Below are positions 19,131-47,407 of a DNA stretch of 64,000 nt, in pieces. Numbering within the stretch: position 1 is the first letter of the stretch; each line of letters starts with the position of its first letter. Under the pieces are notes generated by a model. It saw only the letters and a list, made by a program, of their open reading frames with translations. It ran no database searches and was not told where the DNA came from. Where the stretch lies: positions 66,154,001 through 66,218,000 of the forward strand of contig OX638153.1 of NCBI GenBank assembly GCA_951804945.1, in the 5' to 3' direction. The position numbers and the translations under genes were made by a program. Source of the DNA: Podarcis cretensis. Taxonomy: Eukaryota.

Positions 19131-20841
19131 GTTTATGGAGGTGAAGAATCTGGGGGGAGAGAGATCAGTTTTAATCAGAGATATTTAAAAGCAGGCATTT
19201 GAGAGATTATACAAAATTTGGGGGGGGGGGACCCACAGAAAATTGTTTAAAATTGATAAAATCTTATTAAATTTCTGTGAAAAGGAGCAAGTGAAAGAGA
19301 TTTTGGTAAAATGGCAAAAACTGAAGAGATGTCAACCGTGTGGTTAGTACATGACCCTGTACTAAAACAGTATTGGAGTAAAATAAAAACCTTAACTGAG
19401 AAGGTAGTGCGTTCTCTCTTTTAACCTCCACAAAATATCATCTTTCAAGAACTGACTAGCTAGATAGTAACCACTAGGTCATGATATGATAAATGCTGGA
19501 AGTAACATAAATACCAAACATATATGAATGGGTAAATTATTAACAGCCAAACTGACATCTTTTATAATAAAAGAAAATGATCAAATGGGAAAAGTATTTT
19601 AATAATGTCATATCTACATGCTTGAGTGTAATTCTGGGAACACATTTTGAAGTTGTGACTTAAGCACCAACATCCATAATATCCTGCAGAATAAGAGTGT
19701 GAAATCCGAGTGGAATTCCTAATAATTAAATACTGCATATGCCTGTTTCAATAGGAAATAGCTCTCTGTGGACATCAGAATTATGTATGGAGCTGAACCC
19801 GCCCACGACTGGAATGTGGGCCCCCTGAGAGCTTTCCACCCAGCATGTCCTCAACCTACAAAGGTTTTGCCCCTATAGCTCATACATGCACAAGTAGAGA
19901 GCTATTGTTGGGGGAGAATTTTCATTTCGCTCGTAACTCAACTTTGAAGTATAAGCGCTGAGGAAGTTATCCAGATAGATGCAGGAGTCGGGAGAACTTA
20001 ATCCAGACTCCCACTCCGTAAGCGAGAATCGCACATCCTCTGCAAACTGCCCCCCTAGAAGGCCCACCCAGCACGTCACTCCTGCTCTTTCAGCACACAC
20101 GACACATCCCCAACCTCCAACCGGAAATCTGTCGCTATACAGAGCGAGCACAGCTGTGCTGCTCTTCTCCGCAATGGCATTTTGGAAATCCTCCACTTTC
20201 GAGGAGGGCAAGGCGCCCCCCGCCCGCCCCCGTCTCTTTTGGAGGAGAAACACCCACCGGAATAATGAACCCTTCCCGATTTCATAAGCGATTTTCCTCC
20301 CTCGCCATCCCGTGCTTGACTGTCTCGTAGTAGCGTGGGAAGGAGCACCCAATGGTCATCTAGTCTCCACAAACACACACACACACCCTACATACAATAC
20401 CGTGATCGCAAGTGTTTTTGAGAGCCCCCTTCCCCGATGCGTTTTCGTGGATAAGTCACGTTTGCAGTCAGCTAAACTTGCTGACCCATCTGTCTTTTTG
20501 GCGGCGGAGATACAGCGTCAGTCGCAACCCATTTCCTCCCCCGACACACCCCTTTCCCCATTTCCTTCCAGCCCGCTCTTCCCTGCTCCCACCCGAGGCG
20601 AAAATGCCGCCCGCGAGGCAGCGGAGGGGCTGAAACCAGAGCAAGGGATGGCGGGCGGGGTATTTCTCGCCTGAAAAGCGAGGTTTCCCCCCCCCCCCCT
20701 CGCCTCACAGAGAGACAGGCGGCGGCTCCCAGCGGGCCACACGAACGCACGCGGGCGCGCGCCAAGGGAAGGAGCCCACGGCCACCATCCCCCCGCGGTT
20801 GCCCAGCCCCAGAGAGAACCTCCTCACGGGCAACGCCTCAC

Positions 20842-20930: not shown

Positions 20931-21213
20931 CGCGCTGGCGCCTTCCCACCCCCTCCCGCGGCCTGTGTCCTTAACCCGTCTCCATCCGCAGCGTGAGGCA
21001 AAGACAAGCCTCTTCGCGAAAAGCGCCCCCGCCCCGCGGCCCAGCCTTCGCACGCGACAAAAGCATGGGGGTGGGTAGTAACAAAGGCGCGTGCGCGACT
21101 CAGCCAATACTGGCTCGCTCAGCCCCGCCTCCCCCAGTTGCTATAGTGATACCCGAGGGCAAGGATGGGGGGGGAGGAGTTTCCCCCTTTATCTTGGCGG
21201 GTCACGCACAATC

Positions 21214-21281
21214 CTTTTCCTTTACCAAGATGGCGGCTGGTCCTTCGTATTCGGCATAGCTGTGCTGCGAGCCCATGCGAG
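21214..21281 (+). other. HDLBP: HDLBP putative non-coding exon 1a
   Basis: Pyrimidine initiator CCTTTTCCTTT, YY1 motif, strong donor GAG|GTAAGA at 21281/21282. Confidence 0.7.
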
Positions 21282-30722: not shown

Positions 30723-30738
30723 ATATTTCTTGAGCATA

Positions 30739-30986
30739 AACAAAATAAAAAAATTCCTTCCAGTAGCACCTTAAAGACCAACTAAGTTAGTTCTTGGTAT
30801 GAGCTTTCGTGTGCATGCACACTTCTTCAGATACACGTGTATCTAAATGTGTATCTGAAGAAGTGTGCATGCACACAAAAGCTCATACCAAGAACTAACT
30901 TAGTTGGTCTTTAAGGTGCTACTGGAAGGAATTTTTTTATTTTGTTTTGACTATGGCAGACCAACACGGCTACCCATCTGGAACTG
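30739..30986. mobile_element. Penelope-like element terminal fragment in inverted-repeat configuration, 13-bp TSD
   Basis: Arms 30738-30836 and 30849-30947 are reverse complements with 1 mismatch; TSD TTTCTTGAGCATA at 30726-30738 and 30987-30999; carries a CTGAAGA...GAAA hammerhead core. Confidence 0.75.
30797..30834 (-). ncRNA. Minimal type I hammerhead ribozyme motif (Penelope-associated)
   Basis: Minus strand GUAU CUGAAGA A GUGUG CAUG CACAC GAAA GCUC AUAC: conserved core, 5-bp stem II, palindromic AGCU stem III, 4-bp stem I. Confidence 0.55.
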
Positions 30987-30999
30987 TTTCTTGAGCATA

Positions 31000-32220
31000 T
31001 TCACTCCGACTCCGAAGAGTTTATGGGGCTTATTCTGTGGTAGTCTGCGAGTTTAGGATTGCAGGCACGCAGCACGAACTTTTTACACGTTTCCTCGGAA
31101 TACATGCCCAAGGTTTTGTTTCTGAGTAAACGTGCACATGGTCGCCACGTTTTGCTATGGAGGAGGTGGAAGAGTTCCTTTTCGGCTTTCGCCCCCCTTC
31201 CCTTCAGTCCTCCCTTGGCGGCGGGGCTAGTTGGGGGACTTGCAGCTGGGGCGGGAGCGGCTGCGTCGCTTGACCCAGCGCTTCTCCCCGCCTCCCCAGT
31301 CGCTGGCAGCTGGGCCGGGCCTTCCCAGGAAGGGAAAGGGAAGGGGCCCGGCTCGTCTGACGTGTGAGCCTGGGATTGGCAGCCTCTCCCCCATATAGCA
31401 GACGGGAAGGTGCCTCGCCGCCTTCCCGGGAGCGCTTCGGGGCTTCTCCAGCAGAGCGAGCTAAGCGGGCACGGGCCGGAGTGAGTGCCACGTACGGGGC
31501 AGGAGGGCGGGCGCGCGGGCCGGGGGTGGCGGGAGAGCAGACGGGAAGGCGGCGGCAGCCGCGGGGGTGCGGAGCAGGGGCAGCGGAGAGAAAGAAAGGG
31601 GGGATGGTGAGGAGGAGGAGGAGGAGGAGTAGAGAGAGCGAGAGCTGCTTGCCGACGTGGAGGCAGAGAGGAGGCGCCGGCACGGGCTGTCCTCCCGCGT
31701 CCTCCCCTGCGGAGCTGCCCCTCTCTCCGCATTCTCCCCCTGGAAGACGGAGGGTGACCCGAGCGGGGCGCACGCTCCGCGCCGGGGCTCCGTCCCCTCG
31801 GCAGGGAGGCGAGGAGCAGGAGGAGGGGCGGGGGAACCGATCGGGCTACGTGTCACAGGCGCGCGGCAGCCGGATCTCCTCCCCCTCCCAACTCAGCCGC
31901 AAAACTTTGCCCCAACTTTCCTGGCCAGGTTCTTCCTGCTCCTCCGAGGAGCGACGGGGGCGGAGGAGCAGCGGCGGCAGGGAAAAGAAGAAAAAGCCCA
32001 CTCCTCCCTCTCCGGGCCGGCGCGTCCTAGGCTCCTGACCTTAAACGAGCCAGAAGAAAAAGCCGGGAAAGGGAGGGGGGGGCGAAACGAGAGGCTTTGT
32101 ACTCTATCCTCTCCACATACCCCGCTCCATTTTGCAGGAGGGCCCCAGGCAACATTCCTAATCCTGTGGCTGATGTGGACATTGCAGAGGGCAAAAGCGG
32201 GACGCGGCCCTAAAGCCTGC
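31000..32220 (+). promoter_or_regulatory. HDLBP: Second CpG island, putative alternative HDLBP promoter with exon 1b (about 31400-31480)
   Basis: CpG/GC-rich non-repeat island within HDLBP intron 1; ATTGG 31375-31379; TGACGTG 31358-31364; donor GGA|GTGAGT at 31480/31481. Confidence 0.7.
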
Positions 32221-32508: not shown

Positions 32509-32610
32509 TCATCTAGTCCAATACCCTGCAATGCAGGAATCCTTTGCCCAATGTGGGACTTGAACCCACAACCCTGAGATTGGGAGTCTCATGCTCTACC
32601 AACTGAGATA
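32509..32610 (-). mobile_element. tRNA-Lys-derived SINE with CR1-like tail
   Basis: Minus strand TCAGTTGGTAGAGCATGAGACTCCCAATCTCAGGGTTGTGGGTTCAAGTCCCACATTGGG followed by GATTCCTGCATTGCAGGG...TTGGACTAGATGA. Confidence 0.75.
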
Positions 32611-42677: not shown

Positions 42678-45461
42678 ACATGGGAATCAAGAACCGACAT
42701 CAGAATTACCCCCAGCTGTTACAAAATTCTGGCATTGCCAAGTGATCTGCAGCTATTTCCCCTCCCATCCGTCTTTCGCCTTCCCTTGCCATTCTTCACC
42801 TTGCCCAATATTATTTTATTATATTCTGCTGAAGCAGTGCCTTGGTCTAATCTCCATAGCATACAGCAACGTTTCAGACCATTCCTCAAGTCACCTCAGG
42901 GTGCCAAGGCACACTGGTTGGAAACCAGTGATTTTCTCTCCCCCCCCCCCCCATGTTGTAAGCCTCCTTGAGCATGCTTTGAACATGGTTTTATTCCATT
43001 TCATTGTTTTCATAAGTAACATTTTCTCTAGCCTCTGCCATTCAAATCTGTGCAGCTTCGGGGGCATGATGAAACCAGCAGCTGTGCCACGAGGCTACAT
43101 TCCTGTCAGGCAGGCACTAAATCAAGTTACAGCACCCAAACGGTCTCAACTTGAGCTCAGCCTTCCTGGAACAAAGTTAAGCCACTAAACCCATACCCAG
43201 CTAGCAGGAAGTTCTGAGCAAAGGGTGTTGGGGGCCAGAAAAGGTGGCAGAGCCAGGAGAACGACAGCCTTGAGAATAGGGCCAGATCAAGGGGAGAACA
43301 TACATAATTAGTCAGACCTCTGTATGCTGGTGACAGTAAAAGTAAGGGGAGCACTGTACCACTGTTCCTGCTTTGCAGTTTGCTGAGCCTGTCAGTCATG
43401 ATTAACCCTGGAGTCCTCCTAGTACCTTTTTCTTGAGAGCCAGTATAGGAGACCAGGGTTCAAATCCCTGCCTGGCTGTGATGCTCACCGGGTGCAACCT
43501 TGGGGTGGTTGCCGTCTTCTGTCAGCCTAACCTAAAACAGATTGGCTGGCCGGCCATTTGCCAGAGATTCTTTAGCTGCGATTCCTGCATTTCAAGGAGT
43601 TGGACTTGATGACCCTTGGTGTACATTACAATTCTATGGCTCCATGAAGCTCTAAAGAGTTTGATAAAATAGATGGGAAGCATAGTTAACATGAACTCCT
43701 TGACGATCTTCTTCCATTAAGGGTTGTAGGACAGATTGTTTGTTTTTGCGGTCTGAGCTGTAGCCACATGTGCCGGCAGATGTACTTTCTGTCCCACAAT
43801 AGTGCAGATGCCACACTGGTTTTCTGTTAAGCCACCTTGTCTAAAGCAGTGACAGGCCTTGAATAGTGACATGAATATTCAGTGTTGGCTCATGCAGAGC
43901 ACATGCTCTTCTAGTCTATCCCAGCTTGACCCTGTTGCAAGAAACACTGTCTTGTACCCCAGTTTTGTTCACAGTAAGTCAGTTGTCATGATTCGGTATA
44001 TACATTCTTGATTACCATTTAAAATCTATCCACTTTTATTTACCAATACCAGGCCTAGATCCGTGTCATAGAGCCACCAAATTCCCGATGTTAGTGCCCT
44101 GTGTTAATGCTATAAGCTTTCTGAGTGGCAAGCCCTGCTAAAATGTATGTATTTGTATTAAATTTTCAGCTCTCTTCCTTCTGGGTCATTCCCCAACAAT
44201 TACAGTTTTAGGCTCCTATCCTTGTCCTTCATTTTCCTTCTGGAGCAGCGATTACACGTTTCTTAGGTGATTACAGTTGTGGATTTCAAATTTAGTTTTA
44301 AAAGCGAGGAAATACGAAGATGCTCCAGTCTCGTTCAAGCTGACTTTGCTGGGATTGCACTTGTTCCAAGAAATGTTCAAAGTAGATTATGGCCCTACCC
44401 ATAAATGCTGACTGTCTCCGCTGCTGCTGCTGCTGTTTTTCTAAGCTGGTTTGATCAGTTTTACCCAGTAGCACAGGTATTTGTAGTTAGACATCTAACT
44501 CCCACTGAACTCCTGTTGGGATGTTGGAAATATGTTGGTAACTTATTTGTTTTCAAACAAAGATCTCTGGTCAAGTTTGGAGCTCTTGCCTCATGTAGAG
44601 TTTTCAAAATGCCAGTCACATACACATGTGCACAAGTTGGGCATTGCTGGTGTGTGTGTGTGCATGTGTGCGCGCACATGCACATATTAGAGCTTAGAAT
44701 TGCCAGGAGCTGATTTAATAAAACTCTGTACTTTTCTCAGCCTCTGATTGTAAGAAAGTGCATGTTTTACCCAGGCTCCACTAAACTGCATTCCTATCTT
44801 CTGACTGATGTCCGTTTTCTTGGCAGGTTTTTAATCTGTTAGTTTCTCTGTGTGTCACCCAGTTGGAGATGCTTTTACAGCCATGAAACTTCAAATTCAT
44901 ATCTTACATCTGCTATTCATTTACTGTTTCTTAGCCTAAAATTACGTTGAGTAGTTTTTGCTGGAGAATGGACAGGCAGTTAAGCCCAAAGTCCATAGGA
45001 AATCTTAAATTACAGTTTGCAGTTGAAATTGATGAGATTATTTGGATGATGCAGAACACTTTGCTGTACTGTTGCACCCAAATAGTAGTACATTTTTTTA
45101 TTTTTCTGGAAATAAAATACTATGTATTGCTGGTATAACCTTTGATTGTATAGATTCATTATGTTCAGCATTCAGATTATATGTGGATGAGTGGGTTAAG
45201 AATGTGCTGAAATGTGGATATGAACAGTGACGTTTCCTCCTCCTTTTGTGTGTTGATTTTAAATTGTTTACTTGTCTGTTCTGTATTTTGCTTTTTGTGG
45301 GGGAAGTACACTTGTTGCAAGGCAGGTTGCAAATTCATTATTGAAAAACAATAATTTACACTTCGGATCCTGATTTCCAAACTCATGAAACTGTATTGTG
45401 ATTTTATGGAATTTTAGCACTCTTAGAGCAGAGTAACTATTGTTTCTTTCTTTCCCCAAAG

Positions 45462-45529
45462 CAGAAGCTGGCAGGCTGACAAACAGGCAGCTCACAGGAC
45501 GGACTTTCTGGCTACTGACCATTTAGCTG
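45462..45529 (+). other. HDLBP: HDLBP non-coding exon 2 (start 45462 or 45465)
   Basis: tttctttctttccccaaag/cag acceptor; CTG|GTAAGT donor; resembles the mammalian HDLBP 5'UTR as remembered. Confidence 0.8.
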
Positions 45530-47331
45530 GTAAGTTTACAGATCTATGTGGTTAAGTTTGTATGTCAGACTTCTGGCCCATGGTCCTATTGAACGCTAGG
45601 AGTTGTATTCAGCGTAGCGCTAAAAAAATTCAACCCGTGAAAGGAATTCTCTTTGCTCAATGGAACGTTCTCCACCTCTCCTCCCCCCACCCCATGCAAT
45701 CTGGTTTCTCCTCAGATAGTATAAATCTTTCGCCTTGTACCCATGCAGTCTGTTCTGGCGGTCTCCCCCTACCCTTGTGAGCAGTTTTGGGGGTGTTGCA
45801 GGGGAACAAGAGAGGGGGAAATCCTGTTGCACTAGCAAAGCTATTGAGTTCACTACCAGCCTTGTTTTTAGTACTGCCCATTAATTATTTATAGATTTCA
45901 CATGACTTACCTAAAATATTCCAGCAAGTACCTGTAACAAAGAGTGGTTCTTCAAGGTGTGTGTGCGCGCGCATGCATGCTTGCACATAAAGCTGGTATT
46001 TTAAAAGGAAACTATAGCCCACATAGTTGAATATGGTCCATGCCCAATGCAGAATGAACTTCAGCTGCTGCTTTTAAGAATTATTGTTTCTAGTGTTCCA
46101 GTAAGAAGGAAAGGGAAAAAATAGTGTTTCTTGCTAAACCCGTACCTTGAATATTCCCATCTCCTCCTAACAATAATACCCAAGTTAAAAGTAGAAAAGT
46201 GATAAAATGATTAAGGGGAGAAATTCTGTGTAAATGCTTAAAATACCTAGATTAGCTCCAAAACAAGATAATTAAGGGGGACAGAAAAGAGGTTTACAAT
46301 TGTGTAGATAAAGTGAAAAGAGATTATGTTCCCTTTCTCACAAATTGTTTCCTAATTCTTATAATTAAGAGGCAGCAGGGCTAAAAAGTAAGTACCTTTA
46401 ACATGGCACAAAATTAACTTGTTCTCTGGGACAGTTGAAGGCTAACTTTGTATAACTGCATTCAGAATAGTGCTAGAGAGTTTTGTACATGCCCAATTAA
46501 TCATGATGGTTGGGGTTATATGTCCCCACTTCCAGGTATTCTTTACTTTCTGACAATAGCAAAGTGATTATTGGCTAGATTGCTCTTTCAAAGAAATCAG
46601 GCTGCTCTATTTATTCTAAGGTATCTAGAATTGGAACTAAACCCTGCGTTTGAAGTAATGTTGATGCACCTAAATCCCTGATTTGGGTTCTGGTCATATT
46701 GAAGTTTCTGTGTATTAGGGGGGAGCATATAAGGCCAATGTTCGCTTCTCTGCCCTACAACGTGTAAAAATACATGCTGAGGTTGCATGTGAAGAGGACT
46801 AGTTACATCTATAATAGCCCACTATTTGTGGCAGATGCAGCAAAGGCAGACTGATTTAGTCAACAATTTCCCAAGATAACATCTTTTCATTTTATATTTT
46901 GTAATGTTAAAAATTCAACCAACAGCTCCTCATATTAGTGCACCTTACTGTCACTGACGTTTAAGTCTGCTTGAAGAGGCGGTGGGCATGTTGCTGTTGC
47001 TTCTAGAGGGGGAATAAGTGCTTTTGCAGCAACCTTTCCCAGCCTCAAAGGAATAACTGAAGTAATACCATGCAGCAGCGAAAGCAATGGATCAGTGTTT
47101 TTCCAGGCTGGCTGGGAAGAAAGGCACTGCTTACAGCCCTAGGAGAAATAGTTGTGGCTAGGAAGAGGTACTCAGCTAGGGACAGTTTCAGCTTGTGCCA
47201 GGCAAGTGGCCAGTCATGCCACTTCTACTTTCCCTCCCTATTTAAATGCATCCTGCTAGTAATTATTACGGTGTTTCCCCTTTTGTGCTACCAGTGGCAT
47301 ACCCGGATTGTGCGTGGGTGGGAAATCGACC

Positions 47332-47407
47332 ATGAGCTCTGTGGCAGTTTTGACCCAGGAGAGCTTTGCTGAACATCGCAGCGGCCTTGCTCAGCAGCAA
47401 GTGAAAG
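47332..47407 (+). CDS. HDLBP: HDLBP first coding exon (MSSVAVLTQESFAEHRSGLAQQQVK); exon starts 47295
   Basis: accag|TGG...ACC ATG AGC TCT...AAA G|gtaag; vigilin N-terminus; 76 coding nt. Confidence 0.96.

Follow-up and report, generated by a model that had tools for sequence, protein, structure and literature searches.

The window, by which we mean the whole 64-kb stretch of Podarcis cretensis DNA analysed here, carries on its plus strand a series of KH-domain exons that match human vigilin (HDLBP; E 3e-39) and, to the left of these on the minus strand, the exons of a septin gene. CpG-rich stretches are confined to 12.5, 20-21.5 and 31-32 kb. The island at 20-21.5 kb lies between the septin gene and HDLBP and contains putative exon 1a, and the one at 31-32 kb, in which a GT donor is present, is the sole CpG island from exon 1a to exon 2 (Table 1). 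The exon match and the CpG scan thus confirm the gene identity and the two islands proposed in a preliminary description of this DNA.

The acceptor of exon 2 is fixed by a genomic orthologue, L180, and the joint found in two cDNA-type loci is the predicted exon 2-exon 3 junction. In L180 (2881-2948), 64 of the 68 positions of exon 2 are identical; in the distant locus L182 (51-121), the proportion is 62/68, as against 108/158 for exon 4. Neither exon 2 nor exon 1b gave a folding signal (z -0.3 to +0.8; 0/18 pairs covary), and exon 2 contains no conserved peptide; its conservation likely reflects a sequence-read element common to both leaders.

Table 1. Positions of the main features, in window coordinates
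Feature	Position	Strand	Remarks
Second one-mismatch ERSE-like element (CCAAG-N9-CCACG), upstream island	20762..20780	+	One of three one-mismatch forms in the window
Putative exon 1a (inferred start)	21130..21281	+	Donor GAG/GTAAGA; island common to septin gene
uORF MAAGPSYSA*, strong Kozak context	21230..21259	+	9 codons, in exon 1a
ACACGT site	31085..31090	+	From sequence
GCCACGT site	31144..31150	+	Exact top XBP1 motif of PMC6199730
Internal HDLBP CpG island (putative promoter 1b)	31150..32100		GC 0.62-0.71, CpG o/e 0.77-0.81 over 31001-32000
ACACGTCA site	31357..31366	-	TGACGTGT on plus strand; 7/8 to XBP1s consensus CCACGTCA (PMC6959563)
ERSE-like CCAAT-N9-ACACG	31361..31379	-	Reads CCAATCCCAGGCTCACACG; one mismatch from consensus
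TATA-like CATATAG	31392..31398	+	~25-30 nt upstream of inferred 1b start; putative role
Putative exon 1b (inferred start)	31420..31480	+	Donor GGA/GTGAGT, splicing there predicted
GCCACGT site	31487..31493	+	7 nt into intron 1b; within 79-nt block identical in relative X10
GACGTGGA site, UPRE-like	31654..31660	+	CCACGTC on minus strand; GACGTGG at 31654 in the preliminary description
ACGTGTCA site	31848..31855	+	TGACACGT on minus strand; unchanged in X10 block 31825-31928
Non-coding exon 2	45462..45529	+	68 nt, strongly conserved; joined to exon 3 in cDNA-type loci L179, L182
Exon 3	47295..47407	+	HDLBP start ATG at 47332; 5' part is UTR

Other elements were noted around these exons. Two intronic blocks, 44763-44937 and 43070-43119, are conserved with L180 (72% over 181 nt and 82% over 50 nt, respectively); the first has a branch-point-like and an AG acceptor-like stretch and is possibly a cryptic exon or an enhancer. 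An Rfam search returned nothing beyond one tRNA-like piece (32553-32610, minus strand; 40.8 bits, incomplete), likely the head of a tRNA-derived SINE. Positions 30738-30947 form a near-perfect 210-bp palindrome with 104-nt arms (97%). This MITE-like element is repeated, with at least 80 matches on both strands from the 40 of 459 candidates scored, and its centre contributes an ACACGTGT 590 bp 5' of the inferred 1b start. An exact 14-nt direct repeat, AGCAGACGGGAAGG, flanks putative exon 1b (31397-31410 and 31536-31549).

A cluster of ACGT cores in the internal island

All of the motifs listed in the preliminary description lie where it placed them, and a seventh ACGT, absent from its list, is present at 31130. 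Between 31081 and 31860 (780 bp) there are seven ACGT cores against 0.66 expected, and six [A/C]CACGT words against 0.19 expected, from 3000 dinucleotide shuffles; the associated p of 0.0003 is the floor of that number of shuffles, and the interval was picked post hoc. The upstream (1a) island has a single [A/C]CACGT. As controls we used 100 loci of the same genome anchored on ACGT-free motifs, namely, for a YY1-type word with 253 matches, 89 of the first 90 and, for an NRF1-type word, every one of its 11 matches, one overlapping locus having been removed earlier; the 29 loci without a 500-bp island were then excluded. None of the 71 control islands, which by their anchoring are YY1/NRF1-type islands rather than internal promoters, reached six [A/C]CACGT in its best 780-bp window (maximum 4). 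The cluster is real, and the density claimed for it holds against both shuffled sequence and CpG-island background.

Islands of secretory-pathway families in the same genome served as positive controls. That of the RAMP4/SERP1 family, whose orthology to a strong XBP1 target of mouse is assigned through the Pfam family, speaks for the favoured reading, with six sites over 1.3 kb and at most four per 780 bp. Islands of the Sec61_beta and TRAP_beta families have one GGCCACGTGAC each, so that control by XBP1 needs no high site number, nor need the number predict control. Among the other loci examined, L178 has no island and L174 has 0-1 site per island.

Palindromic E-boxes and TACGTG[C/A] are absent among the six [A/C]CACGT sites, CACGTG does not occur within 31081-31860, and TGACG is not in excess there. 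ACGTG is followed by G or T at 6/7 sites here and at 108/211 in the controls, a mild skew. The exact UPRE 8-mer (TGACGTGG/A) is absent; TGACGTGT at 31358 and CGACGTGG at 31653 are each one mismatch off. As judged from the sequence, ACGT-core motifs such as GCCACGT lie near the putative start at a density above background, the arrangement predicted for an XBP1s/CREB3-family target.

Mammalian data agree with such an input. Among 5,892 XBP1 ChIP peaks in mouse Th2 cells, one lies 22 bp from the NM_001301364 start, at the internal Hdlbp promoter; its table entry lists GACACGTC as motif and leaves the NF-Y column blank, and a second peak, with three motif calls, lies 504 bp from the upstream Hdlbp start (PMC6199730). 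Row order in this peak table carries no strength, and its scores are all 0. In mouse liver, Hdlbp accounts for three of the 1,681 XBP1s sites in the table: one on the internal promoter, with a maximum of 32.6 (5.5 in the knockout), a second some 790 bp inside that promoter (23.9; 3.2 in the knockout), and a third on the upstream Hdlbp/Sept2 promoter (maximum 28.6; 2.5 in the knockout), beside reference signals of 29.2 for Dnajb9, 43.3 for Hspa5 and 73.9 for Sec61b (PMC6959563). Hdlbp expression falls on IRE1 inhibition in Th2 cells (log2FC -1.0, padj 8e-35; PMC6199730) and is 0.69x in the Creb3l2 knockout (PMC6722061). A 12-h rhythm of Hdlbp has an adjP of 2.7e-4 as against 0.48 in the next sheet of the published table, with an amplitude of only 8%; following the table legend, we take the sheets as control and knockout, respectively. 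The proposed XBP1/CREB3-type input is supported by the mouse tables, in which XBP1 sits on the internal promoter and the mRNA depends in part on XBP1 and CREB3L2.

In human cells, 6 h of tunicamycin or thapsigargin raised HDLBP mRNA (log2FC 0.87 and 1.20, respectively) and footprints (0.58 and 1.16), the latter not above mRNA, and the reported protein fold changes in ER stress were 0.97-1.22, none of them significant (PMC7287054). Induction by ER stress, as suggested in the preliminary description, is seen there in the mRNA and has no significant counterpart in the protein. At the gene level, at which the mammalian expression figures pool both promoters, HDLBP is a modest XBP1/CREB3L2 target that shows no gain in translation efficiency, and both of its mouse promoters are bound.

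We infer from gene order that the 1b island and the internal Hdlbp promoter of mouse are orthologous. No alignment of the island to a mammalian or bird promoter was obtained. An exon-4 scan yielded six loci, none extending to the promoter, and the first bases of L180, 2.9 kb 5' of exon 2, belong to the trailing end of a CpG-rich sequence that does not align.

The ERSE-like element and the two leaders

The preliminary description had named an ERSE-like element among the motifs of the internal island bound by ATF6, XBP1s or CREB3 factors with NF-Y. The ERSE consensus is CCAAT-N9-CCACG, and NF-Y must occupy CCAAT for ATF6 to bind CCACG (PMC8301375). Here the CCAAT box (31379-31375, minus strand) is exact and the spacer, CCCAGGCTC, is exactly 9 nt, features shared, together with the promoter-proximal position, with the ERSEs of HSPA5, HSP90B1, CALR and XBP1; unlike the classical element, the right half reads ACACG, and there is a single copy. 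Because ACACG replaces CCACG, the element falls, by sequence, outside the ERSE group. Its right half, overlapped by TGACGTG at 31358-31364, is better read as ACACGTCA, a predicted XBP1s site with 7/8 agreement to CCACGTCA.

The pattern CCAAT-N9-[A/C]CACG has a single copy in the 64 kb, at 31379-31361 on the minus strand, and occurs in 1/71 control islands. One-mismatch ERSEs are commoner, with three in the window, one of them at 20762, and with control islands carrying one in 7/71 cases within 3 kb and in 4/71 within the central 1 kb. Across the genome, CCAAT-N9-ACACG occurs 2,986 times and the exact CCAAT-N9-CCACG 775 times; a high-copy repeat with CCAATTCTGGATCCACACG, an instance of the ACACG form (G000, e.g. 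L032-L061), accounts for the majority of the first 100 listed among the 2,986 matches. The element is unchanged in X15, which is weak evidence since X15 is very close (15 substitutions plus gaps in ~1.16 kb), and it lies outside the parts covered by contigs of X10. A published human ERSE list omits HDLBP, but it omits HSPA5 too and is therefore uninformative.

If this element nevertheless acted as an ATF6/NF-Y ERSE, promoter 1b would be stress-inducible and 1a constitutive, and ER stress would switch HDLBP to a well-translated isoform. Such a switch could draw on the exact CCAAT and spacer 40-60 nt 5' of the inferred start, on the rarity of the relaxed pattern among controls, and on the contrast between the islands in site number (six in 1b, one in 1a) and between their leaders in uATGs. 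It is at odds with the departure from the consensus and with the presence of one-mismatch ERSEs in controls and in the upstream island. It also conflicts with the mammalian data: no NF-Y motif is called at the mouse peak, XBP1 occupies the upstream promoter as well as the internal one in both T cells and liver (maxima of 28.6 and 32.6 in the latter), human protein is not significantly raised in the ER-stress tables, and HDLBP responds weakly to ATF6 alone (log2FC 0.27, adj. p 0.049), with values of 0.06 for compound 147 and 0.46 for thapsigargin (PMC4954754). We consider it unlikely, and neither the ERSE as key element nor the division into a housekeeping and a stress promoter is upheld. The signal is likely carried by the ACGT cores rather than by ERSE spacing.

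The two leaders differ in their upstream ATGs. Besides the uORF of Table 1, exon 1a has a uATG at 21275, which opens a 23-codon uORF that terminates in exon 2, and a further one at 21165, to be counted only if the start lies that far upstream. The ATG at 21230 falls within CAAGATGGCGGC (21227-21238), a YY1-type word, so that both the promoter and the uORF may benefit from its conservation. No ATG is present in 31300-31500, in exon 2 or in the UTR of exon 3, and the predicted 1b leader of ~166-186 nt would be ATG-free provided that the 31480 donor is used. The contrast in uORFs drawn in the preliminary description thus stands for 1a and, for 1b, holds only with this donor. Alternative vigilin 5' exons 1A and 1B, with a uORF in 1A, were reportedly described by Rohwedel in 2003 and likewise by Kugler in 1996. 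The title of the 2003 paper (PMID 14504658) names the HDLBP uORF. Human and mouse would share with this locus alternative first exons and a uORF in the upstream one; uORF length is 9 and 23 codons here and is said to be 13 in mammals.

In a crude matrix the 31480 donor is weak (1.6, as against 6.4-7.3 for the other three donors), and a rival donor at 31606, ATG/GTGAGG, whose use adds an ATG, scores 4.4. Contigs from 4 of 17 runs, aligned to 30950-32150 (exon 2 lies outside that stretch), contain no spliced joint and no loose end from exon 2; the RNA-type status of the X1, X4 and X10 contigs is a guess, and uncovered parts prove nothing. The sole RNA-type contig over exon 1b comes from X10, a more distant relative; it is identical over 31423-31501 (79 nt) and continues unspliced through the 31480 donor. 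A second X10 contig aligns at 31825-31928, with 8 other letters and 1 gap. Each of these aligned blocks retains its site (31487 and 31848, respectively) without change, and the conservation over 31423-31501 spans exon, donor and first site and ends before 31606. The blocks, from one relative, favour use of the predicted 31480 donor and a function for both sites. Two X10 loose ends have no match in the window at ≤3 mismatches and none to exon 2; one of them, by eye, resembles diverged colinear DNA. In X1 and X4, unspliced RNA-type contigs of low depth span 31646-32150 but leave out putative exon 1b; pre-mRNA, DNA or a different start may account for them. Scanning metagenomes for a 22-nt pattern of the donor gave 0 matches.

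These splice sites bear on a second alternative, in which the island is mainly an intragenic XBP1/CREB3-type enhancer for the HDLBP/septin promoter, or its main exon ends at 31606 with a uATG, and no ATG-free isoform matters. The missing 1b junction in the contigs, the higher score of the ATG-ending donor and the location of sites on both sides of the inferred start agree with this; an annotated mouse transcript that begins at the internal promoter does not, nor does the X10 block that takes in exon, donor and first site and stops short of 31606, and we regard it as quite improbable. That a different factor (HIF, CREB/ATF or E-box proteins) uses the ACGT cores, or that they form a chance cluster from scanning many windows, is very unlikely: although the HIF core RCGTG is in every site (nine in the best window, equalled by 2/71 controls) and the interval was selected post hoc, the lack of TACGTG[C/A], of CACGTG and of a TGACG excess, and independent mouse XBP1 peaks from two studies, argue against it.

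Secretory load and HDLBP promoter use

The reading we favour, at a probability of roughly 0.7, is that the 31-32 kb island is a second HDLBP promoter, responsive to XBP1s and CREB3-family factors, that acts as a dial with secretory load. These factors would bind the internal island and raise vigilin mRNA ~1.5-2-fold as secretory load rises, the dial being superimposed on a constitutive island rather than forming an on/off switch. Its first step, the island with its cluster, the gene and exons 2-3, is seen in the window itself. For the second, the mouse tables place XBP1 on the internal Hdlbp promoter, with an mRNA that is partly IRE1/XBP1- and CREB3L2-dependent. The 1b island would then be orthologous to that promoter, with sites read by the same factors, and translation of an ATG-free 1b transcript would exceed that of the 1a transcript, which carries uORFs. 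Most mRNAs targeted to the ER are bound by vigilin, whose level peaks in secretory cells and which is established to promote the translation of ER-bound mRNAs (PMC9117268), and the loop would thereby add secretory capacity.

The closest counterpart is the mouse internal promoter, which is likewise an internal CpG-rich start between a Sept2-shared promoter and the coding exons, with an antisense [G/C]ACACGTC word near the start and a second peak within the intron. The two gave no sequence alignment, and they differ in that binding is measured in mouse and predicted here, and in that the mouse upstream promoter is bound too, whereas the upstream island here has few sites; the mouse peak also has no NF-Y motif call. 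Promoters of SERP1, SEC61B, SSR2 and DNAJB9 resemble the 1b island in having [A/C]CACGT words in a CpG island and in a gene-level factor dependence of about 2-fold in mammals; in contrast to these, the 1b island has more sites than the controls, no perfect GCCACGTGAC/CCACGTCA, and the position of an alternative promoter. As for the proposed estrogen link, which builds on vigilin being a vitellogenin mRNA-binding protein, no ERE with fewer than two mismatches was found near either promoter.

Mammalian data already document HDLBP as an XBP1 target and also its uORF, which ribosome footprinting has confirmed (PMC3483550). In the literature covered, with subscription journals mostly outside its scope, we found nothing that ties the choice of HDLBP promoter to XBP1 or to ER stress, and the passages searched in two reviews do not address the matching of vigilin to secretory load. 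The cluster and the mouse ChIP table rows together point to the internal promoter as an IRE1-XBP1/CREB3L2 input. More tentatively, and with doubt on our part, XBP1s and CREB3L2 may preferentially fire this promoter, in which case load would shift vigilin mRNA from a uORF-damped to an ATG-free leader; the novelty would lie in this promoter-selective bypass of the uORF. If true, it would constitute a feed-forward loop in which the UPR, by promoter choice, raises a protein that speeds the translation of ER-bound mRNAs, and the bias towards 1b would be hard-wired more strongly in this lineage, with six sites against one, than in mouse.
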